IMG/VR virus record: IMGVR_UViG_3300032223_000334
Location: 1 to 54,230 of that record
Length of the DNA: 54,230 bases
Source of the DNA: a virus
Reading direction: 5' to 3' (one strand)
Shown: in pieces, positions 2,998 through 54,230 of the stretch
Layout of the letters: every line of letters begins with the position of its first letter
How positions within the stretch are numbered: the stretch's first letter is position 1
Notes under the pieces: model-generated
What the model was told of the DNA's origin: nothing
Database searches by the model: none
Seen by the model: the letters and a program-made list of their open reading frames with translations, nothing else
Position numbers and translations under genes: made by a program

Positions 2998-2999
2998 TT

Positions 3000-3533: not shown

Positions 3534-3555
3534 GAATTATTACAAGGAGTCTATT

Positions 3556-4158
3556 ATGTCAGCAACATCTGCTCCGTTTGGCCTGCGCCCTGCATACTTT
3601 CCAACAGGGTTGGAACGTGCTCAAGCGCTCGCTGGCGGTATTGCTTCGGGCTACAGCTCGAACATTCTCAAAGGTCAGCCTGTCGTTTATAACGCCTCGG
3701 CTGGCACAATCGCAGTTGCTACTGCTCCCGCAGCAGGCGCATCTGCAGCCTCGTATCCAGTTGCTGGTTCATTCCAAGGTGTTGAGTGGACTGACACAAC
3801 TGGTCGTCGTCGTGTTTCTAACTACTGGCCTGCAAGCACCTCGTATGTTACTGGTTCTTGCGTAGCTTATTTCTACAACGACCTAAACATCGTTTATGAA
3901 ATCCAAGCTGATGGCTCTATGGCTCAATCCACTATCGGTAATGAATACAACTTTAGTAACATTACTTCTGGTTCCACTACTACTGGTCTGTCTCAAGCAA
4001 CATTGAGCGCCACTGGTGTTGGTAATGGTGTTCAAGGCCAAATGCGCGTTGTTGATCTGGCTCCATATGCCGACAACGCTTGGGGGGATTCGTACACTAT
4101 CGTTCGTGTCCAGTTAGCAATCACGCAATTCTACGGTGCTTACACCGCTATTGCTTAA
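3556..4158 (+). CDS. Virion structural protein upstream of the major capsid gene (possible decoration or auxiliary head protein)
   Basis: The track ORF 3499..4158 is trimmed to ATG 3556, which is preceded by AAGGAG (3544-49). 200 aa, Ala/Ser/Thr-rich and beta-rich in appearance. Confidence 0.55.
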   Translation: MSATSAPFGLRPAYFPTGLERAQALAGGIASGYSSNILKGQPVVYNASAGTIAVATAPAAGASAASYPVAGSFQGVEWTDTTGRRRVSNYWPASTSYVTGSCVAYFYNDLNIVYEIQADGSMAQSTIGNEYNFSNITSGSTTTGLSQATLSATGVGNGVQGQMRVVDLAPYADNAWGDSYTIVRVQLAITQFYGAYTAIA

Positions 4159-4174
4159 TTAGGAGACTGACACC

Positions 4175-5089
4175 ATGGCAGCCCCAATGAGAAGTACAGA
4201 CTTTCGTTCGATAGTTGAGCCAATCCTCAACGAAGCGTTCGATGGCGTTTATGATCAACGTGCCGATGAATGGTCAACGGTTTTCCGTGAACAACAAGGC
4301 ATTCCACGTAACTACCACGAAGAACCCGTCCTGTACGGTTTCGGTGCAGCCCCTCAGTTGCCTGATGGCTCGCCTGTAACCTATCAACAGGGTGGTGTGC
4401 TCTTCCTGCAACGCTATGTTTACCAAGTATTTGGTTTGGCATTTGCGTTGACCAAAGTTCTGGTGGAAGATGGTGACCACATTCGTATTGGTCAAGTTTA
4501 CGCAAAACACTTGGCTCAATCGTTGGTTGAGACTAAAGAACTGTTGTGCGCAAACATTCTGAACCGTGCTTTCAATAGCTCGTATGTTGGTGGTGACGGC
4601 GTATCGCTGATCAACACTGCTCACCCAATCGCTACTGGTACTTTCAGCAATCAGCTTACATCGGCTGCTGTTCTGTCCCAGACATCGCTTGAGCAGATGC
4701 TGATTCAGATTCGTCAAGCTGTTGACAACAACGGTAAGAAAATCCGTCTGCAACCACTGAAGCTAGTTGTTGCTCCGGGTAACGTATTCCAAGCAGAAGT
4801 TCTGCTGAAATCAGTCCTGCGTACTGGTACTGCTAACAACGACATCAACCCAATCAAATCGATTGGCTTGTTGCCTGAAGGCGCATCAGTAATCAGCCGT
4901 CTGACTTCGGCAACTAACTGGTGGGTACAGACCGATGCACCTGAAGGCTTGAAGCTGATGATGCGTCGTGTTCTTGAGAAGACCATGGAAGGTGACTTTG
5001 AAACTGACTCAATGCGCTACAAGGCGACTGAGCGTTACATCCCTAACTGGACTGATCCACGTTGCTTGTTCGGTACACCGGGCGCGTAA
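4175..5089 (+). CDS. Major capsid protein, HK97 fold (Mu gpT-like)
   Basis: 304 aa. The N-terminal FRSIVEPILNEAFDGVY and the overall pattern resemble Mu-gpT-type major head subunits. A strong intrinsic terminator follows, as is typical of highly expressed capsid genes. Confidence 0.8.
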   Translation: MAAPMRSTDFRSIVEPILNEAFDGVYDQRADEWSTVFREQQGIPRNYHEEPVLYGFGAAPQLPDGSPVTYQQGGVLFLQRYVYQVFGLAFALTKVLVEDGDHIRIGQVYAKHLAQSLVETKELLCANILNRAFNSSYVGGDGVSLINTAHPIATGTFSNQLTSAAVLSQTSLEQMLIQIRQAVDNNGKKIRLQPLKLVVAPGNVFQAEVLLKSVLRTGTANNDINPIKSIGLLPEGASVISRLTSATNWWVQTDAPEGLKLMMRRVLEKTMEGDFETDSMRYKATERYIPNWTDPRCLFGTPGA

Positions 5090-5095
5090 TACACG

Positions 5096-5119
5096 GGGGG
5101 AGGTAACACTCCCCCTTTT
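5096..5119 (+). terminator. Rho-independent terminator after the capsid gene
   Basis: GGGGGA (5096-5101) pairs with TCCCCC (5110-5115), with an 8-nt loop, followed by TTTT (5116-5119). Confidence 0.7.
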
Positions 5120-5154
5120 CTACAATTTGTCATACTTTTCATGGAGCAGACAAA

Positions 5155-6207
5155 ATGCCACAATTTTCAGATGATTTGTTTTTAGGTTCGGCTCAGTCGT
5201 TTGTTGGTACTAATCCCAACAACGCTTTTGCCAACCCAGCACCAATGGACTTGGGCTTTGGCCCAATGGGTCGTGTTTACTTATTGGATGAGACTCCAGC
5301 TACTGTTACTACAGCCGCTGTTCTTGCCGCTAAGACTCCTACTGTCGCTACTACTTATAGTGGCACTCAGTTGGCTACTGCTTCAACTACCGCAGGTACA
5401 ACGCAGGTAACTCGTAGCGATGGCACGATTGTTCTTCAATTAGATTACCCACGCGCAGTTTCTTTGACAGTTGGCTCAGGTTCGCCAACAGCCTCTAACG
5501 TAACTGTGTCTGGCTATGACTATTACGGTCAATCAATGTCTGAAATTATTCAGACTGGCACTACACAGTCAACCACTGTAAATGGTCGTAAGGCATTCTT
5601 CCAAATCTCTAGCGTAGCTTTCTCGGCTGCTACTACGGTAGCTGTGTCGGTTGATACGACTAAGATCATGGGCTTGCCTGCTAAGGTAACTGATCCTTCG
5701 TATGTTCTGACTGCTAAGTTCAATGCTGGCACGATTGACAATACTTCTGGCGTAGTTGCTGGTTTGGGTGGTGGTTCAACTACTTACTCAACACAAGCAA
5801 TCACAAACTTTACTGCTGCTACTCCCGGCGTTATTACTGTTGCTTACTCTCCACCAAGCGGTACTTTAGTGTCGTTGACTGGTGCTTTGGGTACGTTGAC
5901 TGGCGTTTCGTTGAACACCACTTACTGGTGGACTAACGTATCTGGTACAACTGGTAAGCTGTCAACCACTCAAGCTAACTACTTGGCTGGTACGTTTGCG
6001 GCTACTGGCGGCACAACAATTACTAGCGGTATGAACTTGGTTCCTTCAAGTGTTTCTAGCGCTGTAACTCCAGATGTACGCGGTACTTACGCAATTTCTG
6101 GTACTCCAGACGGCTCTAAACGTCTGTTGATCAGCATGGGTTTGACAGCAATCCAAGTTGGCCCAAATTCAACCCGTTCAGGCTTGCTTGGCTCAGACCA
6201 AGCTTAA
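5155..6207 (+). CDS. Thr/Ser/Gly-rich virion structural protein
   Basis: 350 aa with beta-rich low-charge composition, in the structural operon. Confidence 0.55.
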   Translation: MPQFSDDLFLGSAQSFVGTNPNNAFANPAPMDLGFGPMGRVYLLDETPATVTTAAVLAAKTPTVATTYSGTQLATASTTAGTTQVTRSDGTIVLQLDYPRAVSLTVGSGSPTASNVTVSGYDYYGQSMSEIIQTGTTQSTTVNGRKAFFQISSVAFSAATTVAVSVDTTKIMGLPAKVTDPSYVLTAKFNAGTIDNTSGVVAGLGGGSTTYSTQAITNFTAATPGVITVAYSPPSGTLVSLTGALGTLTGVSLNTTYWWTNVSGTTGKLSTTQANYLAGTFAATGGTTITSGMNLVPSSVSSAVTPDVRGTYAISGTPDGSKRLLISMGLTAIQVGPNSTRSGLLGSDQA

Positions 6208-6219
6208 AGGAGAACCGTT

Positions 6220-7257
6220 ATGGCAACTAAATTTAAGCGTGAGCCTAAAGAGAAGACTACAGAGCCTTCAGTTGACGAGGTTGGTCATGGCATGAAGAAG
6301 GGTGGCCATGCTCATAAGAAGCATATGATGATGGGTGGTGCTCCTATGGGTGCTGCTTCTATGGTTCGTCCACGCACTCGTATGGCAATGGCTGCTGCAG
6401 CTCCAACTCGCGCTCCTATGATGCGCAAGCATGGTGGCGAAGTTGAAAGCAAGGCTGAGCACAAAGCTGAGATGCATGAGATGCACAAGATGGAGAAGGA
6501 ACTCAAACATCATGAGCATATGCCTGCAAGCAAGGCGCATCGTGGTTTGAAAAAGGGTGGCATTTATAAGCCAACTCCCGGCGGTTTGCTGGAAGAGGGT
6601 AAGCCACACCACAAGGCAATGACTGGTGCTGTTGAAGGCCCCGGTTATAAGCATGGTGGTCATACCAAGAAGCACCACAAAGCTGCTGGTGGCGTTATGT
6701 CAACTGTCCATGAAGGTGGTAAGCAGTTAAAGCACGGCGGTCATGCTAAGCATCACATGGCTAAAGGCGGCACACTGCACCCACATATTGATGTTCAGGA
6801 CAAAGTGGTTGAGGCTAAGCAACGCAAGAGCATCAGTTCAAAGACTGGCGCGCTTGAGGGCGTTGGCTACAAACACGGTGGTCATACTAAGAAGCATCAC
6901 TATGCTAAGGGCGGCACAGTGTCTCAGAACGTAGCAAAGCGTTATGAGAACACTATGGTTCATGATGGCGTTCATAGCCCTATGCAAAAGAAAGCAGGAA
7001 CTGGTGCGATCAAACAAGTTCCGGCTGGCTACAAAAAGGGCGGTCATGTGAAGCATCACGCTCATGGCGGTCATGTAGCGCATCACACTACGCACGGTCA
7101 TGATGATCACGGTCATACTCATATGCATCAGCATGTGGCTAAGCACGATCACGGTCATGACAAGATGGATGGTCATCCTATGAAGCACGGTGGTAAAGCT
7201 CACCATACTTCTAAGGTGTCTACACATCACAAAAAGGGCGGCAAATGTAATTACTAA
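6220..7257 (+). CDS. Histidine-rich basic protein with reiterated K-[KH]-G-G-H motifs
   Basis: 345 aa, about 54 His by hand count. Repeats seen: MKKGGHAHKK, YKHGGHTKKHH (twice), LKHGGHAKHH, YKKGGHVKHHAHGGH. The C-terminus has an H-x-H run: HGHDDHGHTHMHQHVAKHDHGHD. Confidence 0.7.
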   Translation: MATKFKREPKEKTTEPSVDEVGHGMKKGGHAHKKHMMMGGAPMGAASMVRPRTRMAMAAAAPTRAPMMRKHGGEVESKAEHKAEMHEMHKMEKELKHHEHMPASKAHRGLKKGGIYKPTPGGLLEEGKPHHKAMTGAVEGPGYKHGGHTKKHHKAAGGVMSTVHEGGKQLKHGGHAKHHMAKGGTLHPHIDVQDKVVEAKQRKSISSKTGALEGVGYKHGGHTKKHHYAKGGTVSQNVAKRYENTMVHDGVHSPMQKKAGTGAIKQVPAGYKKGGHVKHHAHGGHVAHHTTHGHDDHGHTHMHQHVAKHDHGHDKMDGHPMKHGGKAHHTSKVSTHHKKGGKCNY

Positions 7258-16515: not shown

Positions 16516-18537
16516 ATGCCACAATACCAAGGTGTATGGACGCTAGAAGCTCAGGCTCAGGCGCTGACCAATCAACAATGGGTAACTGACCCTAATTTCA
16601 AGAACACCACTCTGCTATTACAAGCAGACGGTACAGGCAGCGGCTCGCAGAATCAGACCTTCTTAGATGGCAGCACCAATAACTTTTTCATCACAAGAAA
16701 CGGCAACACTACCCAAGGATCGTTCTCGCCGTTTAGTCAGGCTCCGGGGTATTGGGGGAATTACTTTGATGGAAGTAGCAGATTAACTATTGCCAATAAC
16801 ACCGCAATGGTTTTTGGTACTGGCGCATTTACTGTTGAATGTTGGTATTACTACACTACTTCTACTACCTCTGGAACTGCTTTTATAACAAAAGGGGTTG
16901 GTGGTGCTGATTGGCAATTTTATACAAGCGGTGCGAATAATTATTTAAGTTGGTCAAAAAGCGGAACAGTAATTAACTCATCAACAGTCCCAATTCCAAA
17001 TACTTGGAACCATTTAGTGTATGTGCGTGATGGCTCTAACAATAACGCCATATTTTTAAATGGCACAAGAATTTATAGCGGAACTGATACAACAAATTAT
17101 TCAGGCACAGGAAGTGTGTATTTAGCCTCTGATGGAACATCGTATTATTTTACTGGCTATCTATCAAACGCTCGTCTTGTAAAAGGCACTGCTATTTACA
17201 GCGCAACCGCAACAAGTTGTGTAGTTCCATCTACTCCGTTAACTGCGGTGTCTGGCACTGGATTACTTACTTGTCAAAGCAATTATTTTGTAGACAATAG
17301 TGGCAATAGTCTTACAGTAACAGTTGGTGCTGGAACCCCATCAGTCCAAGCCTTCGGCCCTTTTGCTCCTGCGCTGCAATGGACACCAGACGTAGTAGGC
17401 GGGTCTGGGTATTTTGATGGTACGGGGGATTATTTACTTCTTGCAAGCAATGCAAATTTAACTCCAGCAAGCAGCACGTACACATTTGAATGTTGGGTAT
17501 ATAGAACAGCATCTGGTGCAATGACTATATGGGATACCGCAGTTAATAGTGGTTTTTACATACATATTAACGGGTCTAACAAAGTTGTTTTGCGTTCGTA
17601 TAATACTGCAGACATTATTACTTCTTCTATAAATGCTCCTGTTAATGCTTGGTTCAGCATCATAGTTGCTAGAGGTGCTGCAAACTCCACTAAGATGTGG
17701 ATAAATGGTTCTTCCACTGATGGCGGCTCAGCTACAGATGCAACAACATATGTTGCTGCTTCAACGTATATTGGAATTTACGACAATATAACTATTGGTC
17801 TTACTGGTTATATTTCGGGTATGCGTTTTGTTAAAGGCTCTGATGTGTATGGTGTGTCAAACGCCACAATTTCTGTTCCTACAGCGCCTCCTACTGCAAT
17901 TACTAATACACAGCTACTCCTCAACTACACCAACGCTGGTATATACGACGGCAAGATGGGTAACGTATTAGAGACAGTAGGCAACGCACAGGTAAGCACA
18001 AGCCCTGTGAAGTACGGTAGTGGGAGTATGTACTTTAATGGTACGTCTGATAATTTAAAAGGCGTTACAGGAAATATAAATGCTTTTGGTACAGGCGATT
18101 TTACTGTTGAAATGTGGTTGTTTCCTACGGCTTTTGCTACAAACAAAACAATTTATTCTTGTAATACTTCAGGAGCAAGCGCAACTGGCTTCCATTTTGG
18201 AGCGAACGCATCTGGACAAATTTTTATTTATTCTAATGGTGGTTATGCAATTTCTTCATCTGCAACTTCAGGTGTTCTTACAATAAATACATGGAATCAT
18301 CTTGCTGTTGTTAGAACAGGATTGATTGTAAAAGTTTATGTAAACGGTATTGCCGCTACTTCTACTTGGACATTAACTACGCAAACATTTACAGACGGAG
18401 TTTTGTTAATTGCCATAGCCCCTTCTGGAAGTCCTGAATATTATTCAGGCTATATAGACGATCTACGCATCACCAAAGGTGTTGCACGTTACATAGCAAA
18501 CTTCACGCCTCCACAACAGGCACTGCCGAGACAATAA
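16516..18537 (+). CDS. LamG/concanavalin-like repeat protein (about 3 modules), probable receptor-binding fibre or spike component
   Basis: 673 aa. Reiterated signature FTVECW.Y....W.H.A.VR.G....Y.NG......GYIS..R..KG.A.Y, then ..P.TPLTA...T.LL.CQS..VDNS. The N- and C-terminal segments are paralogous to 18548..21937. Confidence 0.7.
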   Translation: MPQYQGVWTLEAQAQALTNQQWVTDPNFKNTTLLLQADGTGSGSQNQTFLDGSTNNFFITRNGNTTQGSFSPFSQAPGYWGNYFDGSSRLTIANNTAMVFGTGAFTVECWYYYTTSTTSGTAFITKGVGGADWQFYTSGANNYLSWSKSGTVINSSTVPIPNTWNHLVYVRDGSNNNAIFLNGTRIYSGTDTTNYSGTGSVYLASDGTSYYFTGYLSNARLVKGTAIYSATATSCVVPSTPLTAVSGTGLLTCQSNYFVDNSGNSLTVTVGAGTPSVQAFGPFAPALQWTPDVVGGSGYFDGTGDYLLLASNANLTPASSTYTFECWVYRTASGAMTIWDTAVNSGFYIHINGSNKVVLRSYNTADIITSSINAPVNAWFSIIVARGAANSTKMWINGSSTDGGSATDATTYVAASTYIGIYDNITIGLTGYISGMRFVKGSDVYGVSNATISVPTAPPTAITNTQLLLNYTNAGIYDGKMGNVLETVGNAQVSTSPVKYGSGSMYFNGTSDNLKGVTGNINAFGTGDFTVEMWLFPTAFATNKTIYSCNTSGASATGFHFGANASGQIFIYSNGGYAISSSATSGVLTINTWNHLAVVRTGLIVKVYVNGIAATSTWTLTTQTFTDGVLLIAIAPSGSPEYYSGYIDDLRITKGVARYIANFTPPQQALPRQ

Positions 18538-18547
18538 GGAGTAAAAC

Positions 18548-21500
18548 GTGTCAGACAAATTTCCCGGCAATTTTGTGACTACTGGTGCGCCAGCAGGGTT
18601 TTCTGTTGCGTTTGATGGGAGCACGGGTTATTTAACGGCGACTACAAGCACTGCGTTTTCACTTCCTGCTGATTTTACTGTCGAGGCTTGGGTATACCCG
18701 ACTGCCACAGGCACTACTAATGGCCCTATGATTATTGGGTCAACAACTACTAACGCATTAAAGTTTTTCCAAAACTCTAGCGCATATACCGTAGCAGTTG
18801 CTTTGTATGGTTCTAGTTCTTTTTTAAGCTCAACCAATGCAATGAATGCAAATGCTTGGAACCATGTTGCGGTAACACGATCTGGTTCCACTGTTACTTT
18901 ATGGGTTAATGGCGTTTCTTCTGGAACCGCTACACAAGCGGCAGCGTTTGCTTCAACACAAGTGTTAATAGGTGGTGGTCAAACTAGCGCGTATTTGTCT
19001 GGCTACATTTCAAATGCTCGTGTTGTTAAAGGTACAGCGGTTTATACGGCTGCATTTACTCCACCAACACAATTATTCCCTATAACAAATACAACATTAC
19101 TTACTTGCCAAAGCACGACTATTGTTGACAACAGCACTAGCGCACTCACTCTTACGGCAAGTGGTTCTGCTACCGTCAGCAATTTCACACCGTTTGCTGG
19201 ATACACAGGATTTAACCCTGCGCTTGGTGCTGCGGCTGGTGGTGTATGGACGTTAGATCAAGCTGAGTATTACCAAGCTAACCGTAAGTGGCCTATCTAC
19301 GACCCGTACTTCAATCAGACTACACTGATGCTGCATGGTAACGGTACTAACGGCGCACAGAACAATACGTTCTTAGATAGCTCAACGAACAACTTCACCA
19401 TCACCAGAAATGGCAATACGACTCAAGGTACATTCACGCCTTTCTCACAGACGGGGTGGAGTAATTATTTTGTAAACACAAGCTACCTTGGATTGCCTGT
19501 GGGAAGTTCAACTGTTGGTGCTAGTGACTTTAGCTTAGAAGCATGGATATACCCATTAGATAGAAGTAATGCGTATTACATTTTTGGTGGTCAATCAGAT
19601 AGAGCAACAACTTCTGGAAGTTCATATAACTTTAATATGCCATCTAGCACGGGTTATTTAAGTTGTGAGTTATATGTTGGCGGTAGTAATTATAATTTTG
19701 CTTCAACTACAGCCCCCGCATTAAATACTTGGAGTCATGTTGCTCTTGTGCGTACTGGTGGAACAGTTAGTTTGTTTATTAATGGAGTTATAGTTGCAAC
19801 AAATTCCACGTTAGGCACAAGCACAATTAATACGGGTTCTACAACGTACACGCCTGCAATAGGCGCTAATGGCTCTGCTTCTTCTACTACGTTTAGTGGG
19901 TATATATCAAACTTTAGATTGATTATTGGCTCTGGTGGCTATAACGCTACTCAAAACTTTACACCACCTACTTCGCCATTAACGGCTACAACAAACACTA
20001 GAATATTGTCATGCCAAAGCAATAGATTTGTAGACAACAGCGCGACTAATAACACGCTAACCCCTGCAAACTCACCATCCGTCCAAGCCTTCTCCCCGTT
20101 CGTCCCTGCATACATCACGCCGACGACGTATAGCAATTGGTTTAACGGAAGCACGGGATATTTATATGTTTTGAACAATACGGCTATTACCCTTAGCGGT
20201 GATTTCACTATTGAGTTTTGGGTTAATTTAAATAGCGTTAGCGCATCACAACCTTTTACTTCATATGGAACGACAGGCTCTGCTTCAAACTTGTTATTCC
20301 TATTTAACAACTCTGTTGGTTTGCGTTGGTATTACTCAGGTGGAACGGTAGATATAAACCAAGGAAGCACATCTGGTTGGAGTGCTAATACGTGGTATCA
20401 CGTTGCTGCTGTTCGCAGTGGGACAACAATCACTTTATACAGAAATGGTGTTTCCCTTGCATCTGGAACTTCAAGCCAGACATATCAAACTGCAAGTCAA
20501 ATTAATATTGGCGGCAGCCCCGGTGACTCTGTTTATTTAAATGGATGCATTAGCAACTACAGGGTTCTTAAAGGCACGGCTCTTTATACGTCGGCGTTTA
20601 CACCGCCTACTGCGCCATTAACAGCAATCACAAACACTAGTCTGTTGATTTGCCAGAGCAGCACGATTGTTGATAACAGCGGAAATGCATTTACTGTAAC
20701 AGTATCAGGTACAGTCTATCCAGTAACATCCCCTACCCCATTCCCAGCAGTGGTAGATCAAACTACATTAAACACTGCCTACAGCACATCATTGATAGGT
20801 GGTAGTGCGTATTTTGATGGTAATGGGGATAATTTAACTGCGCCACAAGGTGCAGCTTTCCAATTTTCCGGTGACTTCACTATTGAATGTTGGGTTTACG
20901 CAAACAATAGTACGGGTGGAGCAAGCTACGATGGCGTTTTTGATACACGTTCTGGAAACGTAGTAAGTAGTAATTCTGCTGGTGTAAATTACACCCCGAG
21001 TGGATATTTAAATATGTATGTTGGTGGAGCTAATACTGCATCATCTACGTTACTTGGCGCAAAACAATGGGTGCATGTGGCTTTAGTAAGAAGTGGTTCA
21101 GCAGTCACTATGTACCAAAATGGTGTTTCTGTAGCTACAGCAACTACTAGCACAAATTTATCTGATGGTTATTTTACTGTTGGTGGATTTGTTTCTTCTG
21201 GTTATTGGAATGGTTATATATCTAATGTTCGTGTAGTTAAAGGAACTGCTGTTTATACAAAAGCTTTTGCTCCACCATTAGTACCATTAACAGCAATTAG
21301 CAATACTCAGTTACTTCTGTCTACCACCAACGCTGGCATCTACGACAACACGGCTAATAACGCATTAGAGACTGTTGGTTCAGCTCAGATTAGTACTGCA
21401 CAGAGTAAGTTTGGCGGTAGTTCTATGTATATGCCTGCAACAAATGGCAATTACTTTAACGGGAAAACTAATCCAATAAACCTTTTTTTTGGAACAGGTA

Positions 21501-21937
21501 ACTTCACTATTGAGTGTTGGGTGTATCCGACCGCATTTACAAATTCGGCAGCAGGAATTTTGGGTGTAGGTACTTCGGGTGGATATATTGATTACGTTTT
21601 GGAAGTAGGTACTTCAGGGGCTGTATCATATATTGACGCTAATGCCTCGCGTTTTACGTCGTCATCTAACTTGTCTACAAACACATGGACTCATGTTTGT
21701 TTGGCTAGAACTAGCTCTGCTGTTACGCTTTACTTTAATGGTGTAAGTGTTGGCACAGTTAGTACAATTAGTAATATATCTGGCACATCCACTTCCAGTT
21801 TGTATGTAGGTACTGGCCCTCAAGTTCCCGGAAGCCGTCAGTTTATTGGCTACATCGACGACCTCCGTATCACTAAAGGCGTAGCACGTTACACCACAAA
21901 CTTCACACCACCAACATCACAACTACAGGATCAATGA
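18548..21937 (+). CDS. Giant LamG/concanavalin-like repeat protein (about 6 modules), probable receptor-binding fibre or spike component
   Basis: 1129 aa, GTG start after AAGGAG. FT[VI]E[AC/F]W[VI]Y occurs 6 times (5 times followed by GYISN.R and once by GYIDDLR). The C-terminus YIDDLRITKGVARYTTNFTPP is almost identical to the end of the 673-aa paralog. Confidence 0.7.
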   Translation: MSDKFPGNFVTTGAPAGFSVAFDGSTGYLTATTSTAFSLPADFTVEAWVYPTATGTTNGPMIIGSTTTNALKFFQNSSAYTVAVALYGSSSFLSSTNAMNANAWNHVAVTRSGSTVTLWVNGVSSGTATQAAAFASTQVLIGGGQTSAYLSGYISNARVVKGTAVYTAAFTPPTQLFPITNTTLLTCQSTTIVDNSTSALTLTASGSATVSNFTPFAGYTGFNPALGAAAGGVWTLDQAEYYQANRKWPIYDPYFNQTTLMLHGNGTNGAQNNTFLDSSTNNFTITRNGNTTQGTFTPFSQTGWSNYFVNTSYLGLPVGSSTVGASDFSLEAWIYPLDRSNAYYIFGGQSDRATTSGSSYNFNMPSSTGYLSCELYVGGSNYNFASTTAPALNTWSHVALVRTGGTVSLFINGVIVATNSTLGTSTINTGSTTYTPAIGANGSASSTTFSGYISNFRLIIGSGGYNATQNFTPPTSPLTATTNTRILSCQSNRFVDNSATNNTLTPANSPSVQAFSPFVPAYITPTTYSNWFNGSTGYLYVLNNTAITLSGDFTIEFWVNLNSVSASQPFTSYGTTGSASNLLFLFNNSVGLRWYYSGGTVDINQGSTSGWSANTWYHVAAVRSGTTITLYRNGVSLASGTSSQTYQTASQINIGGSPGDSVYLNGCISNYRVLKGTALYTSAFTPPTAPLTAITNTSLLICQSSTIVDNSGNAFTVTVSGTVYPVTSPTPFPAVVDQTTLNTAYSTSLIGGSAYFDGNGDNLTAPQGAAFQFSGDFTIECWVYANNSTGGASYDGVFDTRSGNVVSSNSAGVNYTPSGYLNMYVGGANTASSTLLGAKQWVHVALVRSGSAVTMYQNGVSVATATTSTNLSDGYFTVGGFVSSGYWNGYISNVRVVKGTAVYTKAFAPPLVPLTAISNTQLLLSTTNAGIYDNTANNALETVGSAQISTAQSKFGGSSMYMPATNGNYFNGKTNPINLFFGTGNFTIECWVYPTAFTNSAAGILGVGTSGGYIDYVLEVGTSGAVSYIDANASRFTSSSNLSTNTWTHVCLARTSSAVTLYFNGVSVGTVSTISNISGTSTSSLYVGTGPQVPGSRQFIGYIDDLRITKGVARYTTNFTPPTSQLQDQ

Positions 21938-46535: not shown

Positions 46536-46801
46536 GAGCCTTATTACTTTTACCGTTACTTTTAGCGGCTTGTACTACCCATGAGCCGATTAGAAGTACG
46601 CAGATGCCTGTTGTGCCTGTGGTAGTTGATCCGCAGGCTCAGCAGATGAGTAGGAATGAGGTAATCCATGCGGTGGGTGACTGCGAGTCCAACGGATTAC
46701 GAGCAGTCCCTATCATCAGTAAGCGGTTAGTTTCAGGCATGATGAGTGACATTATCATTGATGTTCAGTGTATGCCACGATTGAGGTGGTTCAATAATTA
46801 A
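46532..46801 (+). CDS. Lipoprotein
   Basis: MRALLLLPLLLAAC forms a signal peptide plus lipobox (L-A-A-C). 89 aa. Confidence 0.6.
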   Translation: MRALLLLPLLLAACTTHEPIRSTQMPVVPVVVDPQAQQMSRNEVIHAVGDCESNGLRAVPIISKRLVSGMMSDIIIDVQCMPRLRWFNN

Positions 46802-46869
46802 TGTAAAATCAATGTGTTGGGAAAGCTAGATATGGTGGAACGCGGAGATACGTTTTGCCAAGGGTGGTG

Positions 46870-47510
46870 AGTACCAACACCAAGACGCATGAGGATTGGG
46901 AATAAGGCAGAGACTGGCGTATATCGCTTAGTTGTCTAGGCCCCTCACCAGAGGGAGGTTTGCCGAGTATTCTGGTCATGCAGTCCTCAGCCGTGTTGGT
47001 AACAACAATGATCGTTTCCTCCCGCGATTGCATGAAAAGGTAGGTGTAGGCCAGCATTGTCGACTGATGAAGCGAAAGCAGAAACCGAAAGGTCTCGACA
47101 CTGCCCCGAGCTGGCTACGATGGGCAGACAGGCAATCTGACGTCTCGGAAAGACGAGAACTTACACGCATGAGGATTGGCACATAGATTTTCGGTCAGTG
47201 AGAATGAAGTCGCGCTCTGCATTGCAAGGCAACGTGTACGGCTCTTAATCCCGAATGAGTGCAGCAGGTAGCGCCTGCAAACAGTCCTCAGCCGTGTTGG
47301 TGTAAGAAGGTGCGGTGATCGGGCGTAGGCTTGTCCTCGTTCCCCATTTGCGGCTTATACCAACAACCTAGTCGGCATGGGCCAATGTAGCATCGACACA
47401 TGCGCTGGATAATCGTAACCAGCTGGGAAAGCGGATACTGATGTGAAGCATCGCGGCATGCACGAAGGTAGCGACATCAGGCGCAGCGAGTACCAACCTA
47501 GACAACGCAT
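46870..47510 (+). ncRNA. Candidate large structured non-coding RNA (class undetermined). The boundaries are approximate, within the 46802-47557 ORF-free interval.
   Basis: A 756-nt gap with only short ORFs that lack an RBS in a genome that is otherwise densely coding. It is visibly more GC-rich than its flanks. It has exact internal repeats (20-mer cagtcctcagccgtgttggt twice, 15-mer acgcatgaggattgg twice, 10-mer gagtaccaac twice) that are complementary to each other. The helices contain G-U pairs that are valid only on the + strand. Confidence 0.45.
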
Positions 47511-47557
47511 AAACATCAAGTTAAACTTCAGACAATCAAAATATTTAGGAAATAAAT

Positions 47558-48082
47558 ATGTCTGAACCATCTAACAAAGTTGCAGAGACGCAACCTAAAG
47601 TCCCCAAGAAGACTGGGAGACCTTCCAAATACACTCCAGAACTAGCCGCAGAGATATGTGAACGCCTATCAGATGGAGAACCATTACGTCAGATATGTAG
47701 AGATGATCACATGCCTGCGTGGACAGCGATATATGCTTGGGCAGCTCAAGACAAGGCTCTTTCCGAACGCATCGCGCAGGCGCGTGAGCAAGGCTACGAC
47801 GCTATAGCTGAGGATTTACTGGCTATTGCTGACACACCACTGATGGGTGAGGAGGAGACAAGCAGCTCAAATGGTCTAACGATTACTCGTAAAGATATGC
47901 TTGGCCACCGTAAGCTGCAGATTGAGACAAGGCTGAAGCTACTAGCTAAGTGGAACCCCAAGAAGTATGGCGACCGTCAGATATTGGCGGGGGATGCTGA
48001 GAATCCTTTAGTGGTTCAAGACGCTAACAACGACTTGTTCGTTAAGATGATGGCTGACTTAGAAGCTGCTCGTCAGAAATGA
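47558..48082 (+). CDS. terS: Terminase small subunit
   Basis: KKTGRPSKYTPELAAEICERLSDGEPLRQICRDDHMPAWTAIYAW (HTH) and the C-terminal KLLAKWNPKKYGDR are typical terS signatures. ATGA-coupled to terL. Confidence 0.8.
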   Translation: MSEPSNKVAETQPKVPKKTGRPSKYTPELAAEICERLSDGEPLRQICRDDHMPAWTAIYAWAAQDKALSERIAQAREQGYDAIAEDLLAIADTPLMGEEETSSSNGLTITRKDMLGHRKLQIETRLKLLAKWNPKKYGDRQILAGDAENPLVVQDANNDLFVKMMADLEAARQK

Positions 48083-49499: not shown

Positions 49500-52301
49500 A
49501 TGCCAGCATATACCAAGCTACTTGAAGAGGCGTTGGCCCGACTCCCTAAAGGATCAGCTGAAGCACAAGCCGCAGTTGCCAATCAACTAACTGCAGATGC
49601 AATGAAGGCTGAGTTATTAAAGAAGAGTCTTCAATACAATCAGCCAACAAATGCAGGTAATGCAACGTTAGAACGTATCAAATCTATTGTGCCGCCACAA
49701 AAGATGGCTGATGGTGGTGTACCTTCCCAAGAATTCCCTATTCGTCCAGACCTCGATGAGATGCGCTTAGCCATAGCTAGGAACCGCGCAGGTCAGCCAG
49801 TACAGAATGCAAGCGACATGATCCCCGGAGCTATTCGTGGCTTAGGCAATACGATTGTAGGTGCTGGTCGTGGAGCTATTACATCAGGTGCTGGATGGAT
49901 GACAGACTTGATTAACAGCGTAGACATTCCCCAGATAATGACTGGTCAGTCATATCAAATACCTTATGGCACAGAATATTTAAAAGAAAACTTACCATTA
50001 GCGCCTACGTCACAAGAAGGTAAAGTAGCGCAACAACTTGGTGAGTTTGCTCCATTGCCTATTGCCGAAGGCGTACAAGCCGTTAAGGCCGGGGTTAAGA
50101 AGATGTCTCCAGAAATTGCAGCTGCTTTGCACCGTGCTTACATGACTGGCGAAGGGCCGTTAGGTAAGTTGGTAACCGCTGGTGGCACTGAACCTATGTT
50201 TGCTATTCCGCCTAAAAGTAAATCGATTGCAAAGGCTGAAGCCAAATCTGAGGCGGCTGCTGAGTCGGCGTTAACTGCGGAAGAACAAAACTTAGTTGAT
50301 TTGTTCAATAAAAAAGCAGAACGTGAAGCTAAGCTGGCTAAAAAAGTTGAGAAGCAGGCGGCAGCGGAGCCAAAAGAAAAAGGTGAATCCAAGGGCCGGA
50401 AGGGCGCTATCTCTCCTGATTACTTCCGTGCCATGTTGGCGGCTGAAGGCGAAGATGCAGTACTCAAAGCGGCCCAAGCTGGTGAGCATATCAAGCGTGA
50501 TGCATATGGTAATTATGTTGGCTTCCCTCGCCATGTAACAAGCCCACAAGCTTTAGGAGCTATGCGCAAATCATTAGATGAGCAGTTTGCTGATTCTGTG
50601 AACGCAATTGCTATGGCCGATCCAGAACGATTAGGAACATGGTATGACCGCGCAAAAGAAGGCATAGCAATGAGCGCCGAGCCCCACCAGCTGAATCGGA
50701 TTTTAGAGCACCACGGTGTATATAGCGCAGGCGTATCTCCTGAAAGTGAACTTGGTTTTGCATTGAAGCATTTAAATTCACGCGCCGTTGGAGTGCCTGA
50801 AATGGCGTACCGTGGAGCTCCTATGCGTACACTAGATAAAGCAATAGCTGAGGACAGAGCTGCTAAGCTTGGGTTCAAAATAGGCGAGTACAAAGAAAAG
50901 AATGATCCTCGGCTCCCCAACGCTGGCCCGTTTGGTGTAAACGATTTTAGAGCTGCTCAAGGTTTTGGATACACAGACCCGGCAGGTGATATATGGAAAG
51001 GTGGAGTGAGCGGTACTATGCACCCTGTAATGGATGCAGAGACGGCATTGCTAGTAGATAGAGCTAACCAAGCTAATGTTGGTGGCCGTTCTACTTGGGC
51101 TGGCCCCCACATTCAAGAGATGCCTTGGGTACTTGGTAAAGCTCAAGACTTGTATTCGCGTGGTAAAGAGGCTAGGTTTGCTGGCTCTCCGTTAGAAGGT
51201 GTTAAAGCCGCAATACGTGAGGCCAACAATACCGCACAAGATTACATGTACAAACATGCAGCGTCGTCAACGCATGAGGCGATACCCGGAGCTTCGACTG
51301 GCCATGTACCGTCAATGCTTGCCGCAACTCCTGAAGAGAAGGCTGCTTATACTGCCACAGGGCGTTGGGATCAACCGACTCCATATACATCAGCAGAGGC
51401 CCCCACAGTTGGCGCTGGAAATCGTGATGTTCTGTATTCCGCTTTAGGTATGCGGCAGTTGCCTGCAGTGGAGTCAACAGGTGCTTACTTAAACAGCGCA
51501 GGTCAAATGGAACATAATCCTATGACCATATCTCGGCCTTTGTTCGATTTTCCAACTGGCGGCGGTGGTGGTAAAGCTTCTCCGCAAACAGTTAAAACAG
51601 CTAGCGCTTTGGAAAAGCTTCGTGCTGTAATTGATGCCCAAGAGGCTGGCGCATTGAATTTGCCAAACACTAAGGGTTCAGTTTCTGGTAAGAACGCTTT
51701 GGTGCTTGACACTAGGGGTTCGCATCCTACTGATCCAACTCTTGGGGTTATGCCAACTAAAGAACAACTAGCAGCTATAACCAGAGAGCTAGAGGGCACT
51801 GGATATGGAGCAACTGCAACGAGTAGGGGGATAACAATATTCCCATATGACAGTGATGCTATGGGCGGCAAAGACCTTGCGAAGTTAATGAAGTCAAAGG
51901 GTAAAGAGCTGCAAAAAATTTATCCTTCTAAGCCAATGAAGTCTGTTAACACTTCTATTTATACGCCCGGTATAGGCAAGTTTGGCGAGAAGGAAATTGA
52001 ACCTACGGCCCCATACAGTGGTGAGGCAACGTCGGCGGTGTTACAGGAATTTGCTGGATTGCCGCACTCTGTTGCTCAAAACATAAGCGAGTCAGAGGGC
52101 GTACGTAATGTTATCCGAGCAAAGATGGAACGCGATGCGGCTATGCAAGGTGCGCGTGAAGATATACAAAACACACGAAAATTTTTTGCGAAAGAAGATT
52201 GGCCTAAAGTAGTAGAGCTAGTACGCAAGGGCGCAACACCAGCTGCAGCTTTAGCTACCCTAGGTTATTCGCTTAATTCTTTGGCAGAAGAACGCCGATA
52301 A
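49500..52301 (+). CDS. Large protein of unknown function between terL and portal (933 aa; carries a MADGG motif)
   Basis: Long uninterrupted ORF. Has QKMADGGVPSQEFP near the N-terminus, a Lys/Glu/Ala-rich linker, and a PTGGGGGKASP loop. Confidence 0.6.
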   Translation: MPAYTKLLEEALARLPKGSAEAQAAVANQLTADAMKAELLKKSLQYNQPTNAGNATLERIKSIVPPQKMADGGVPSQEFPIRPDLDEMRLAIARNRAGQPVQNASDMIPGAIRGLGNTIVGAGRGAITSGAGWMTDLINSVDIPQIMTGQSYQIPYGTEYLKENLPLAPTSQEGKVAQQLGEFAPLPIAEGVQAVKAGVKKMSPEIAAALHRAYMTGEGPLGKLVTAGGTEPMFAIPPKSKSIAKAEAKSEAAAESALTAEEQNLVDLFNKKAEREAKLAKKVEKQAAAEPKEKGESKGRKGAISPDYFRAMLAAEGEDAVLKAAQAGEHIKRDAYGNYVGFPRHVTSPQALGAMRKSLDEQFADSVNAIAMADPERLGTWYDRAKEGIAMSAEPHQLNRILEHHGVYSAGVSPESELGFALKHLNSRAVGVPEMAYRGAPMRTLDKAIAEDRAAKLGFKIGEYKEKNDPRLPNAGPFGVNDFRAAQGFGYTDPAGDIWKGGVSGTMHPVMDAETALLVDRANQANVGGRSTWAGPHIQEMPWVLGKAQDLYSRGKEARFAGSPLEGVKAAIREANNTAQDYMYKHAASSTHEAIPGASTGHVPSMLAATPEEKAAYTATGRWDQPTPYTSAEAPTVGAGNRDVLYSALGMRQLPAVESTGAYLNSAGQMEHNPMTISRPLFDFPTGGGGGKASPQTVKTASALEKLRAVIDAQEAGALNLPNTKGSVSGKNALVLDTRGSHPTDPTLGVMPTKEQLAAITRELEGTGYGATATSRGITIFPYDSDAMGGKDLAKLMKSKGKELQKIYPSKPMKSVNTSIYTPGIGKFGEKEIEPTAPYSGEATSAVLQEFAGLPHSVAQNISESEGVRNVIRAKMERDAAMQGAREDIQNTRKFFAKEDWPKVVELVRKGATPAAALATLGYSLNSLAEERR

Positions 52302-52498
52302 TCACGGAGATGCCATGACTTTGCGCCTTTTTCCATTTCACGAAACATTGCATCAATTTCTAGTTGTTTCTTTTTTGAAATTGGTTTTTGTTCAAGCAAA
52401 AAAACTCGATGCAAAAGTTCTTGAATTAGTTCAGCGCACTCTTCATGGTAGCCGCCCTGTTGTTGCAAAAACTCTATTGCTTCATCGTATTTATCCAT
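52265..52498 (-). CDS. Small helical protein encoded antisense to the late operon
   Basis: 77 aa from ATG 52498, with GGAGA 5 nt upstream on the - strand (the track start GTG 52510 is less likely). Its 3' end overlaps the 933-aa gene by 37 nt. Confidence 0.45.
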   Translation of the reverse strand: MDKYDEAIEFLQQQGGYHEECAELIQELLHRVFLLEQKPISKKKQLEIDAMFREMEKGAKSWHLRDYRRSSAKELSE

Positions 52499-52593
52499 GT
52501 TATCTCCCACTGATGGACTTTTAATTTAACAATAAATTAAACGGAAGTCAATAAAAGGATTGATTAAATGAAGTATAAACTGTTAAGAGGTAA

Positions 52594-54230
52594 ATGATGG
52601 CTGTTGAGATGCCCATACCGCAGGACTACAACAGGCACATCGCCCCGTTGTCTGAGGACACTGCTGAGTCTGATGAATCTATTAGTGAGCTGTTTGACCA
52701 AGAAGACCCAGAGGTTGAAGAGCTAGAAGATGGCTCAGCGATTGTACGCATGAGTGACTTGAAGGGGCCAGAGGAAGACCCTGACTTCTATCAGAACTTA
52801 GCTGAGTCAATAGAGTCTTACGAGCTGTCTGACATCGCTATGAAGTACCTAGACCTTATTGAGAAAGATAAGGAAGCTAGGGAAGAGCGTGATAAGCAAT
52901 ACGAAGATGGTCTACGCCGTACTGGTCTAGGGCATGATGCACCGGGTGGTGCTCAGTTCATGGGTGCATCTAAGGTAGTTCACCCTGTGATGGCTGAGGC
53001 GTGTGTTGACTTTGCAGCCCGTGCCATTAAAGAACTATTCCCACCTGACGGCCCTGTACGTACCAAGATCATTGGTGAGGTTACGGAAGAGAAGACTAAA
53101 CGCGCAGACCGTAAGCGCGACTACATGAATTGGCAGCTGACTGAGCAGATCGAAGAGTACCGCGACGAGCAAGAGCAGATGCTGACACAGCTACCATTGG
53201 GTGGCTCACAGTACATGAAGCTATGGTGGGATGAGCAGCGTAAGCGTCCTACTGCTGAGTTTGTACCTATTGACAACATCTACCTGCCCTTTGCAGCTGG
53301 TAACTTCTATACCGCAGCACGGGTGACTGAAGTTCAAGACATTACGCAAGAGGAGTATGACCTGCGTGTGGCGACTGGTTTGTATGCTGACCTTGGTGTG
53401 TACCGTGCGCCGATGGAGCCAGACCAAAGCAAGCCTGAGAAGGCTAACGACAAGATTGAAGGTAAGAAGCGCCAATCTGCAAACATCGATGGTGTGCGTC
53501 GTGTGTATCACATACAGACATGGCTAGACCTTGAAGATGACAAGCGCACTAAAGGTGAGCGCGCTCCTTATATCCTGATGATTGATGAGAACGAGCGTGA
53601 CGTTATTGGCTTGTATCGTAATTGGGAAGATGGCGACGATACATTAACAAAACTGGATCACATAATTGAGTTCAAATTTATTCCTTGGCGTGGGGCTTAT
53701 GCAATCGGACTCCCTCATCTCATTGGCGGTCTTAGCGCTGCTCTTACTGGCGCTCTTCGTGCTCTTCTTGATAGCGCCCATATTAATACCGCTCCGACTA
53801 TGCTCAAGCTTAAAGGAGCGAAGATTAGCGGTCAGTCCCAAGTTATCGAACCTACGCAAGTCGCTGAGATTGAAGGCGCTCCGGGGGTAGACGATGTACG
53901 TAAGATTGCGATGCCTGTGCCGTTCAATCAGCCCTCGCCTGTTCTATTCTCCCTATTAGGATGGCTAGATAACGCCGCAAAGGGCGTGGTGACTACGGCT
54001 GAGGAGAAGATAGCCGACATTACTTCTAACGCTCCTGTAGGCACTACACAGGCTTTAATTGAGCAAGGCGCTGCAGTCTTTAGTTCTATTCATGCTCGCT
54101 TACATGACTCACAACGTCGTGTGTTTAAGATTCTTGGCCGTTTAAATCGTTGGTACTTGGATGACCAACGCAAAGGCGAGATGGTTGCTGACTTGCCAAT
54201 AGCGACAGATGATTGGATTAGCAACTCTGA
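52594..54230 (+). CDS. Portal protein, N-terminal part. The ORF runs off the window end and continues at 2..1033 after circularisation, about 848 aa in total.
   Basis: Frame is open from ATG 52594 (a second ATG is at 52597; AAGAGG at 52585-90) to the window end with no stop, so it is absent from the ORF track. It is in frame with ORF 14..1033 through the 123-bp overlap ((54121-52594) is divisible by 3). The length, an acidic N-terminus, and its position near terL and upstream of the scaffold and capsid genes fit a portal. Confidence 0.75.
   Translation, partial: MMAVEMPIPQDYNRHIAPLSEDTAESDESISELFDQEDPEVEELEDGSAIVRMSDLKGPEEDPDFYQNLAESIESYELSDIAMKYLDLIEKDKEAREERDKQYEDGLRRTGLGHDAPGGAQFMGASKVVHPVMAEACVDFAARAIKELFPPDGPVRTKIIGEVTEEKTKRADRKRDYMNWQLTEQIEEYRDEQEQMLTQLPLGGSQYMKLWWDEQRKRPTAEFVPIDNIYLPFAAGNFYTAARVTEVQDITQEEYDLRVATGLYADLGVYRAPMEPDQSKPEKANDKIEGKKRQSANIDGVRRVYHIQTWLDLEDDKRTKGERAPYILMIDENERDVIGLYRNWEDGDDTLTKLDHIIEFKFIPWRGAYAIGLPHLIGGLSAALTGALRALLDSAHINTAPTMLKLKGAKISGQSQVIEPTQVAEIEGAPGVDDVRKIAMPVPFNQPSPVLFSLLGWLDNAAKGVVTTAEEKIADITSNAPVGTTQALIEQGAAVFSSIHARLHDSQRRVFKILGRLNRWYLDDQRKGEMVADLPIATDDWISNS
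54108..54230. repeat. Second copy of the terminal duplication (equals 1-123)
   Basis: Same as above. Confidence 0.95.

Follow-up and report, generated by a model that had tools for sequence, protein, structure and literature searches.

Several systems are known in which tRNAs alternate with other RNAs in one transcript, among them the tRNA punctuation of mitochondria, the synthetic tRNA scaffold and tRNA-guide RNA (tRNA-gRNA) arrays. In bacteriophages, the non-coding RNAs GOLLD and ROOL are often located near tRNA islands; tRNA-Met precedes GOLLD env-38, and GOLLD itself sometimes contains embedded tRNAs (PMC12286853). Theta ribozymes, which resemble the hepatitis delta virus (HDV) ribozyme, are found directly 3' of phage tRNAs, and a role in setting the 3' end of the tRNA has been proposed for them (Kienbeck et al. 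2024, PMC10879173); they adopt the HDV double-pseudoknot fold and are carried by gut phages of Bacteroidota and Bacillota, where only 4.5% of the associated tRNAs encode CCA (PMC10879173). Hammerhead ribozymes located between phage genes are believed to sever long transcripts (PMC3088659). Here we describe a non-coding locus in the viral record IMGVR_UViG_3300032223_000334, whose full stretch of 54,230 nucleotides (nt) was analysed and is referred to as the window. The locus comprises positions 46802-47557, between a small lipoprotein-like gene (product starts MRALLLLPLLLAAC) and the small terminase gene terS. Judged from its sequence and from comparison with other phages, this interval is a mosaic of about seven independent plus-strand RNA modules in the order B1-A1-X-A2-C-D-B2, and we think it on balance probable that it is the DNA of a polycistronic cluster of small, independently folding RNAs, a 'stable-RNA island' of the kind that holds tRNA genes in related phages.

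A preliminary description of the interval had proposed a single large, plus-strand structured RNA without open reading frames (ORFs), possibly of the GOLLD or ROOL type, or else a packaging region. The absence of credible coding capacity is confirmed: the longest ORFs encode 68-84 amino acids (aa), lie on both strands and overlap one another, and because they cross modules that are found separately in other phages, a conserved reading frame is impossible. The exact internal repeats are also present at the positions given there, namely a 20-mer at 46981 and 47282, a 15-mer at 46885 and 47165, and a 10-mer at 46869 and 47488. The interval was said to be richer in GC than its flanks, which is true of the upstream side (0.52-0.53 against 0.44-0.47) and not of the downstream side (0.50-0.54). 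Compared with shuffled sequence, the plus strand folds with z = -1.48 (0 of 20 shuffles equal) and the minus strand with z = -0.35. Covariation in three of the parts described below (the clamp, the A2 insert and module D) likewise agrees with a non-coding, structured RNA read from the plus strand. The single architecture, in contrast, does not survive comparison with other phages.

The modules are listed here in order. A clamp is an interrupted hairpin of near-constant sequence that holds a variable insert; S1 is the 5' strand of its lower helix, and T-type modules are closed by an acceptor-like stem. L-numbers are the labels of fetched comparison loci.

46812-46880, plus strand: module B1, in which GUGUUGG (46814-46820) pairs with ACCAAC(AC) (46873-46880) around a 10-bp hairpin; the motifs GGAAAGC and GAGUACCAAC are also present.
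46879-47000, plus strand: clamp element A1, with S1 ACCAAG at 46879-46884, 5' half ACGCAUGAGGAUUGG at 46885-46899 and 3' half CAGUCCUCAGCCGUGUUGGU at 46981-47000.
47003-47170, plus strand: module X, homologous to L090 2000-2169 (75% identity) and holding a candidate hammerhead.
47049-47116, plus strand: candidate type I hammerhead core within module X, with CUGAUGA at 47064-47070, GAA at 47081-47083 and C17 at C47094.
47159-47301, plus strand: clamp element A2, with S1 ACUUAC at 47159-47164, 5' half at 47165-47179 and 3' half at 47282-47301.
47294-47366, plus strand: module C (T-type), in which the clamp GUGUUGGU runs into a 12-bp stem (47295-47306 with 47354-47365) and which ends in ACCAACAAC.
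47366-47424, plus strand: module D, with helices GCAUG/CAUGC (47375-47379 with 47399-47403) and GCUGG/CCAGC (47404-47408 with 47419-47423).
47424-47497, plus strand: module B2, UGGGAAAGCGGAUACUG ... CAGGCGCAGCGAGUACCAAC, whose end motifs match B1 and modules in L209, L182 and L193.

When 46701-47600 was compared by BLAST with all fetched loci, these segments were found to recur singly and in other combinations. A2 recurs in 15 loci, among them L020 and L084, which match it at 97% identity and have no other DNA in common with the window, and module D recurs in L149 (100% over 66 nt), L040 (91%), L020, L070 and L182; six of the loci concerned (L020, L084, L149, L127, L040 and L148) have nothing else in common with the window at the nucleotide level. 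Homologues of B1 are present in L209, L127, L084 and L149, a conserved set of five sequences without compensatory changes, and those of the structured, 81-nt insert of A1 (46900-46980) in L095 and L148 (84-85% identity). The likeness of B2 to other modules is at the level of motifs only, with no significant BLAST match among the fetched loci, and the interior of module C has no sequence homologue there by BLAST. L209 represents the same phage, its large terminase (TerL) being 99% identical in amino acids and its flanks 94-98% in nucleotides, yet everything between 46898 and 47603 has been replaced by a different, CC/GG-swapped clamp, a B-type module and a 77-aa ORF. L182 (TerL 89%) has yet another set of modules, while in the other 78 of the 80 TerL relatives examined (72-78% aa) terS is non-homologous and the array is absent. 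Since segments recur separately and a near-identical phage differs, the interval is not one RNA with one architecture, and its modules move horizontally. Otherwise unrelated phages share modules at 97-100% identity.

The same comparison disposes of the single domain that was thought to be closed across some 560 nt by a 10-bp pairing of 46931-46940 with 47497-47506. About 0.3 such pairs are expected in 756 nt, so that this one is likely to be a matter of chance, and it is not conserved, the A1 homologue in L095 having another sequence at this place. A search of the whole window with Rfam cmscan at gathering thresholds returned 0 matches, and at E<=10 neither 46600-47700 nor three shorter stretches matched GOLLD, ROOL, OLE, HEARO, raiA or any intron family; when short stretches were searched, no Rfam family matched any module other than the hammerhead. 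BLASTN of the interval against 50,697 phage records likewise gave no match.

The element that defines the family is the clamp, of which the window has two copies (A1 and A2). Its consensus is ACCAAS-ACG-CA-UGAGGAUUG...insert...CAGUCCUCA-GC-CGU-GUUGGU, which folds as 9 bp, a 2x2 mismatch and 9 bp, that is, as a '20-bp' interrupted hairpin. Copies were collected with few mismatches allowed and with the strand resolved, the element being near-palindromic; at least 212 elements in 160 loci were obtained from IMG/VR, and at least 144 in 118 loci from metagenomes. Over 173 distinct copies, 95.4% of the cells of the 18 core pairs are paired, against 23-42% in slid registers, and 11 of the 18 pairs show two-sided, compensatory changes (60 cells, compared with 10.8 in column shuffles and with 0 of 500 shuffles as high). 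The 9-bp helix tgaggattg/cagtcctca of the preliminary description is therefore real. Its argument for a plus-strand transcript, which had rested on a few T-G pairs, is strongly borne out, for G.U pairs occur in 319 cells of the clamp family and A.C in 12; the folding strand is thus the one that is plus in the window, which is also the better folding strand. Whole-helix swaps have occurred, GACCAUUG/CAGUGGUC in L209 and L125, and further GGCGAUUG/CAAUCGUC and GAGGGCUC/GAGCCCUC. The mismatch at positions 3/10 and 4/9 is kept in approximately 99% of copies with varying bases (C.C/A.G, C.U, G.G) that are almost never Watson-Crick, and U.G at pair 11/2 is kept in 164 of 173. The varying identities rule out a K-turn or loop-E reading of the mismatch. 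An isosteric replacement of U.G by C.A, with 27 apparent cases, was rejected as an artefact of detecting a near-palindrome on both strands, one case being left after strand resolution. Another of the helices first proposed, the 9-bp pair 46872-46880/46993-47001, is probably in the wrong register: family grammar and the minimum free energy fold instead pair 46873-46879 with 46814-46820, and 46879-46887 with 46991-46999.

Clamps are widespread in environmental phage sequence. In exact-pattern scans the 20-mer CAGTCCTCAGCCGTGTTGGT was found in 93 IMG/VR contigs and the 15-mer ACGCATGAGGATTGG in at least 120, and a 19-mer variant in at least 120 metagenome contigs, of which those with recognisable sample names come from lakes; Trout Bog is one lake whose metagenomes contain the element. 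Among 185,579 species genomes, 15 match the pattern of the 3' half, mostly metagenome-assembled genomes of many phyla together with isolates of Polynucleobacter and Pseudomonas petrae; the clamp is complete in Polynucleobacter sp. UK-Kesae-W10 (L206), whereas in Pseudomonas petrae P2653 its 3' half alone was found. The sole clamp match in INPHARED at E<=10 is the uncultured Manatee Spring phage MW202484; two other INPHARED records were set aside as a chance 22-nt match in Gordonia phage Bachita. A locus contains one to four tandem copies, 56-226 nt apart and never on mixed strands. No Rfam 15 family matches the clamp, and neither the clamp nor an organisation of two scaffolds with many cargoes was found in the literature searched, full-text queries with motif strings giving only unrelated primer matches. 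In L090 2163-2200 there is a clamp-like start with a different upper helix, ACGCAUAA...UUAUGCGU-GUGGGU, and the family may be broader than the collecting pattern.

The arrays are closely tied to tRNA genes. In MW202484 the clamp stands directly 3' of tRNA-Asn (...GAG-CCA-AC-ACGCAUGAGG). Among the IMG/VR loci (1.31 Mb), 27 of 29 predicted tRNAs lie within 700 nt of an array and on the same strand, seven of them within 8 nt, and five of these seven are canonical tRNA-Met genes that end 2-3 nt before the clamp. The independent metagenome loci (0.72 Mb) repeat the pattern: 27 of 28 tRNAs are within 1.2 kb on the same strand and seven within 3 nt, five of the seven being canonical tRNAs that end 2-3 nt before the clamp; L346 and L402 have whole tRNA islands beside their arrays. 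In both sets together, 54 of 57 tRNA genes adjoin an array on its own strand. The junction is always NCCA, two nucleotides and ACGCAUG, whether the tRNA is tRNA-Asn, either of two tRNA-Met types, tRNA-Thr or tRNA-Gly, so that the conserved 5' flank of the clamp, ACCA, corresponds to the discriminator and CCA of the preceding RNA. C predominates at positions -5 and -4 (about 80% and 68% of copies), the remaining copies having U there.

A second constant scaffold follows the clamp. The 3' strand of the clamp (S2), (U)GUUGGU(G), pairs with a downstream (C)ACCAACA (S3); CCAAC is found within 330 nt downstream of 150 of 176 clamps, with a median interior of 79 nt, and at least 2 further bp, variable but complementary, lengthen the S2:S3 helix inward in 124 of these 150, compared with 26 of 150 when the extension is shuffled. 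The 12-bp helix 47295-47306/47354-47365, noted before as a repeat-borne complementarity, fits this family-wide pairing of the clamp-final GUUGG with a downstream CCAAC. After the acceptor-like stem come A, CCA (or CUA), two nucleotides and the next clamp. The simplest of the modules so enclosed (T modules) is a bare 7-bp hairpin (L008), and the most elaborate are tRNA-like bodies. Hairpins resembling a T arm are present in 16 of 214 T modules and 4 of 642 random segments, in some T modules canonical D and T arms are accompanied by a large insertion at the position of the anticodon arm, and ARAGORN calls one of them a 90-nt 'tRNA-Ala'. The features of an RNase P substrate, an acceptor-like helix of at least 7 bp and an A-CCA tail, are found in most units, which makes them predicted sites of cleavage by that enzyme. 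Since tRNAs and T modules occupy the same slots, one grammar describes both: [tRNA or T]-CCA-NN-[clamp + cargo]-[T or tRNA].

Two further T modules were noted. One, TGTTGGTGTAACTCAGTTGGTAGAGTC...GCTGGTTCGAATCCAGCCACCAACA, is tRNA-like, with canonical D and T arms and the constant acceptor stem UGUUGGUG/CACCAACA; approximately 60 nt replace its anticodon and variable region, and ARAGORN does not call it. The commonest (L193 620-760, and in L009, L010, L015, L020 and L108) has hairpins UGCGCA-GGCUGA-UGCGCA at its 5' side and GCCGG-AGAUCAGCA-CCGGC at its 3' side, with loops that can pair with each other (GCUGAU/AUCAGC). The arrangement resembles a kissing-loop or pseudoknot clamp that encloses a further variable region, and it would then count as a third constant scaffold.

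What the clamps carry is extremely diverse. Inserts are 23-105 nt long, and clustering by sequence divides the 170 different inserts of the first set into about 100 groups, mostly singletons; the shortest are an 8-bp hairpin with a short 3' bulge, and the larger ones are multi-helix folds with covariation of their own. The A2 insert (47180-47281, 102 nt) is a junction of at least three helices with the conserved single strands AUAGA, UCGGUCA and AAUCCCGAAUGAG. In its family, compensatory changes affect 11 of 31 predicted pairs (alifold, 13 sequences), and AUAGA, UCGGUCA and AAUCCCGA(A)UGAG are invariant single strands. A second hammerhead that was considered within this insert (CCGAUGAG ... 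AAAC) was rejected, since U4 is C, G12 is missing and no Rfam model matches. Module D shows compensatory changes at 4 of 12 pairs (alifold, 6 sequences) and has an invariant loop, AUAAUCGUAA, in its second helix, while in module X the 3' hairpin UCUCG-GAAAGA-CGAGA covaries with CCUCG/CGAGG in L090. The extreme diversity and turnover of cargo suggests RNAs that act on host factors.

Module X contains what is probably a new member of the known type I hammerhead class. The layout is GUCGA, CUGAUGA, A-GC-GAAA-GC-A, GAA, ACC-GAAA-GGU, C and UCGAC, in which stem I is formed by GGCCAGC..GUCGA with UCGAC..GCUGGCU, stem II by A-GC-GAAA-GC-A and stem III by ACC-GAAA-GGU. Read at 47059-47099, the sequence has every element of the type I core (C3-U4-G5-A6-N7-G8-A9, G12-A13-A14, A15.1-U16.1 and H17) with stem I open; GNRA loops cap stems II and III, stem I contains an internal loop, and cleavage is predicted between C47094 and U47095. 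The Rfam model Hammerhead_HH9 (RF02275) matches 47046-47115 over its full length at 17.6 bits (E=0.029 in a 106-nt search). All core bases are kept in L090, where GUCGA/UCGAC of stem I has become GUCGC/GCGAC and its outer part GGCCAGC/GCUGGCU has become GGUCAGAC/GUCUGACU (A-U to C-G and C-G to U-A), and where stem II has changed from GC-GAAA-GC to GCU-GUAA-GGC; in this comparison of two sequences the changes in both stems are compensatory. A descriptor scan of 5 Mb of loci gave three type I candidates, and the two that lie in arrays are those of the window and L090, out of about 160 arrays examined. Rfam searches of the whole window, and of 1.1 kb at E<=10, missed the hammerhead, which came up only once approximately 100 nt were searched alone. 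Short ribozymes can be lost to Rfam speed filters, and the practical lesson is that default thresholds overlooked this one.

The flanking features of the window array are as follows.

46781-46809, plus strand: promoter candidate, a weak sigma-70-like TTGAGG-17-TAAAAT (9/12 match), with a putative start near 46816 at the first module.
47498-47557, plus strand: terS leader, with a half-clamp remnant AACGCAUAAAC at 47504-47514 (5' half only) followed by a ribosome-binding site; 47511-47557 is shared with L182.
47558-48082, plus strand: terS (Pfam Sf6_terminase PF20901, E=3e-35), the downstream gene, outside the RNA array.

Both L209 and L182 keep TAAAAT 5-7 nt before (G)TGTTGG, and no terminator was found after the window array. 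Across the family arrays are intergenic, 129 of 144 having no overlap with an ORF of at least 120 aa, and they point the same way as the downstream ORF in 106 of 126 cases (84%) and as the upstream ORF in 80 of 112, a pattern that is the expectation near the start of transcription units. Their neighbours are diverse: among 1,673 clustered ORFs the commonest are terminase-like, and helicase, primase and HNH-like proteins also occur. Clusters were judged from sequence, Pfam being used for the window terS alone, and each locus comprised 4-15 kb; within these limits no recurrent cluster of an RNA enzyme, recombinase or integrase was apparent. A conserved partner protein was sought among the neighbours and rejected, the clusters resembling terminases or common phage replication proteins.

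Several further observations concern this phage group and its terminase region. None of the 78 contigs L210-L287 has a detectable homologue of the window's Sf6-type terS, and terS seems to be swapped independently of terL here. In L209 the 77-aa ORF at 3411-3643 (MNESQYEVAKLQQELDRMNTLGYELY...), between the RNA array and terS, has no counterpart in the window. At 49641-52562 the window has about 2.9 kb, including most of a 933-aa ORF (49500-52301), where L209 has about 1.2 kb (5766-7005); by this comparison the site directly after the terminase genes is evidently a second replacement hotspot. The ends of the window (1-2069 and 52562-54230) are contiguous in L209 7005-10619 (97-98% nt), from which it follows that the window is a complete, circular or circularly permuted phage genome of about 54 kb. 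The closest GenBank phage, MW202545 (L001, TerL 61%), has nothing that resembles the interval; in it, the unannotated 1.4 kb at 1997-3372 was considered as an RNA candidate and found to be coding, with at least five packed ORFs of 62-131 aa on the gene strand. Caulobacter phage GB2A (L002, OR260089) has its large terminase as two coding sequences (2445-3113 and 3773-5248) flanking a DNA methyltransferase gene within 2445-5248, the pieces lying inside or beside a 2.9-kb terminal repeat, so that its terL may be split or interrupted. Elsewhere in the window (16516-21937), adjacent proteins of 673 and 1129 aa consist of repeated Laminin_G_3/concanavalin-like lectin domains (E down to 1e-94) and are probably tail fibre or receptor-binding proteins.

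Taken together, the best reading of the family, and one to which we would give slightly better than even chances, is a tRNA-punctuated, horizontally exchanged operon of small RNAs. The array would be transcribed together with its downstream genes, in the window terS and terL; the hammerhead would cut the transcript in cis after C47094, host RNase P would cut at the 5' edge of each acceptor-like stem, and RNase III would possibly cut the 20-bp clamp helix. The expected products are tRNAs, tRNA-like RNAs and clamp hairpins bearing cargo, while the constant 20-nt sequences would serve as portable homology for the exchange of modules between phages. A more specific version is a natural RNA cassette system, in which clamp and acceptor-like stem express, process and stabilise more than 100 unrelated small-RNA families traded between unrelated lake phages, the cargo being aptamer-like effectors or decoys that act on host factors, for example translation, RNA-repair or defence proteins; this we put forward tentatively, as a possibility with the odds against it.

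Several points tell against the operon of small RNAs. Transcription, and cleavage by RNase P, RNase III and the hammerhead, are all steps that we infer. RNase III stems are double-stranded RNA of about 20-22 bp, often with an internal loop at the cleavage site, and the clamp, with its 9 bp, 2x2 mismatch and 9 bp, resembles them in structure only; the enzyme needs no conserved sequence, so the near-invariance of the clamp is left unexplained and hints at a specific partner, possibly one that recognises the sequence. In roughly one copy out of four, S1 has CUA or UCA in place of 'CCA', a degeneracy that fits pairing with GUUGG better than a strict RCCA tail, while changes in the lower clamp helix S1:S2 are mostly one-sided, by wobble, and lack full compensation. 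No tRNA gene was found in the window, whose array thus stands without a canonical tRNA. Sigma-70-like sites are found upstream of 14% of arrays against 7%, a weak enrichment of only two-fold. As to the hammerhead, its 17.6 bits are below the gathering value of 52, and A47071.A47080 forms an A.A mispair at 10.1/11.1, which L090 has as well; such mispairs were ground for rejecting candidates unless activity was measured (Perreault et al. 2011, PMC3088659).

Four other explanations account for part of these observations. It is improbable, in our estimate, that the clamps are mainly sites of recombination in DNA, attC-like single-stranded hairpins recognised by a recombinase, with RNA folding secondary. 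The R'' and R' boxes of attC have the consensus RYYYAAC / GTTRRRY, and the clamp boxes ACCAAC/GTTGGT come close, with an unpaired central mismatch and a variable end of 23-105 nt; aligned as NACCAAC/GTTGGTG they share the AAC/GTT core and break the R/Y pattern at one or two positions. The left breakpoint of L209 (46898) is inside the 5' half of the A1 clamp, shared modules start and end at clamp or junction sequences, and direct ACCAAC repeats flank the units like the duplicated tRNA 3' ends of integration sites. Yet no integrase or recombinase is among the recurrent neighbours as judged from sequence, the cargo is covarying structured RNA that includes a hammerhead and tRNA-like bodies, the register after the tRNA CCA is fixed at two nucleotides, the arrays are co-oriented with genes, and the clamp, unlike attC, hardly varies among hundreds of contigs; for the exchange, homologous recombination of the ordinary kind at 20-nt identities would suffice. 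There is also a small chance that the array is a cis-acting leader of the late genes terS and terL, in which competition within ACCAAC:GUUGGU:ACCAAC acts as a switch of the attenuator or antiterminator type, or as a translational enhancer. Each GUUGGU indeed has a choice of partner between the ACCAAC before it and the one after it, CCAACAAC closes the arrays a few tens of nucleotides before the next ribosome-binding site, and the co-orientation with downstream genes and the frequency of terminase neighbours agree with a leader. The same elements, however, stand between tRNA genes and before many unrelated genes, cargo differs between near-identical phages with the same terS, and in the window the terminator of such a switch is lacking and the hammerhead would sever the leader from its 5' part.

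That the clamp is a new self-cleaving ribozyme, or its substrate helix, which trims tRNA 3' trailers as an analogue of theta ribozymes, is in our view quite unlikely. Its position two nucleotides after the encoded CCA of five tRNA types, the invariant U.G wobble, the obligatory internal loop and the hammerhead in the same array would suit such a role, and phage intergenic self-cleaving ribozymes and theta ribozymes are precedents. Against this, the sole constant non-helical feature is the 2x2 mismatch, whose bases vary (CC/AG, CU, GG/CU), the smallest clamps amount to a simple hairpin and a short 3' bulge, from which no known catalytic fold could be built, the models for HDV, hatchet, twister, pistol and hammerhead ribozymes find no match in the clamp, and most clamps follow modules other than tRNAs. 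Least probable of all, and hardly to be expected, is the view with which the preliminary description began, of a single large GOLLD/ROOL-type RNA or a pac/cos region whose repeats bind TerS. The locus is about 750 nt long, in a phage, directly upstream of terS, and its family occurs near tRNA islands; but the modules are independent and shuffled, no Rfam model matches and the closing helix is not conserved. The repeats are present in hundreds of loci without a nearby terminase gene, the 15- and 20-mers being found beside DNA polymerase, helicase, SSB-like, HNH and tRNA genes as well as terminases, and the two of the 80 TerL relatives that have the window's terS (L209 and L182) carry different arrays, which does not suit sites of TerS binding.

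The operon of small RNAs can be set beside the known systems as follows. Its niche is that of the phage tRNA-island non-coding RNAs GOLLD and ROOL: like these, the clamp family is phage-encoded, non-coding, several hundred nucleotides in total and located at tRNA islands. Unlike these, it matches no such model at E<=10 and consists of interchangeable 60-170-nt modules rather than one architecture, which places it outside both families; it is a much more frequent and simpler element of the niche, with at least 350 copies. The hammerhead shares with the phage type I hammerheads (Rfam clan CL00010) a full core, three stems and an intergenic site, and differs from them in its sub-gathering score, in the A.A at 10.1/11.1, in being part of one among seven modules and in being carried by only two of the arrays examined. 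Bacterial Y RNAs of the YrlA type have an Rsr-binding motif, GNCGAAN0-1G (PMC4201824), in their closing stem, together with a tRNA-like domain, and a Y RNA or Ro-binding stem was rejected as an identity for the clamp, the motif being absent from the consensus and no Rfam Y RNA matching. In function, theta ribozymes come nearest as a precedent for a structured RNA held at a set place 3' of phage tRNAs, a position that the clamp has in relatives and not in the window; the clamp differs in being a plain interrupted hairpin with variable cargo, in its occurrence in contigs that, where sample names are recognisable, come from lakes, in following an encoded CCA, and in that most copies stand after non-tRNA modules. 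The HDV-like fold is a nested double pseudoknot (P1, P1.1, P2 and P3, with or without P4) with a catalytic C. No HDV-family match was obtained on clamp stretches at E<=10, and the covariation supports a single interrupted hairpin.

With integron attC sites the clamp has in common an imperfect hairpin with outer boxes of the AAC/GTT type, an unpaired centre and a variable loop, and the arrays resemble integrons in their tandem cassettes and quick turnover. It differs from them in its near-invariance, in cassettes that are RNAs of 60-250 nt instead of ORFs, and in being tied to tRNA 3' ends and to the direction of transcription; integron arrays adjoin an integrase gene and attI, and here, as judged from sequence, no integrase-like cluster recurred in the 4-15 kb of each locus. 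There is a formal parallel with tRNA punctuation, the tRNA scaffold and tRNA-gRNA arrays, in that some T modules are a frame of acceptor, D and T arms with foreign RNA at the anticodon region, while in contrast to those systems many T modules lack a T arm and consist of a hairpin alone, about one CCA-like tail in four is degenerate, and the RNase P step is a predicted one. The fixed CCA register, the acceptor-like stems and the embedded hammerhead nevertheless provide concrete processing sites. If the cargo RNAs are effectors, the approximately 100 families of insert would constitute a large and so far unused collection of natural structured RNAs, and the scaffold would be useful for RNA expression. 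The cassette system, which likens the trade in modules to that in integron cassettes or anti-defence genes, would if true be an RNA-only counterpart of the accessory-gene islands of phages and a natural version of the synthetic tRNA scaffold.

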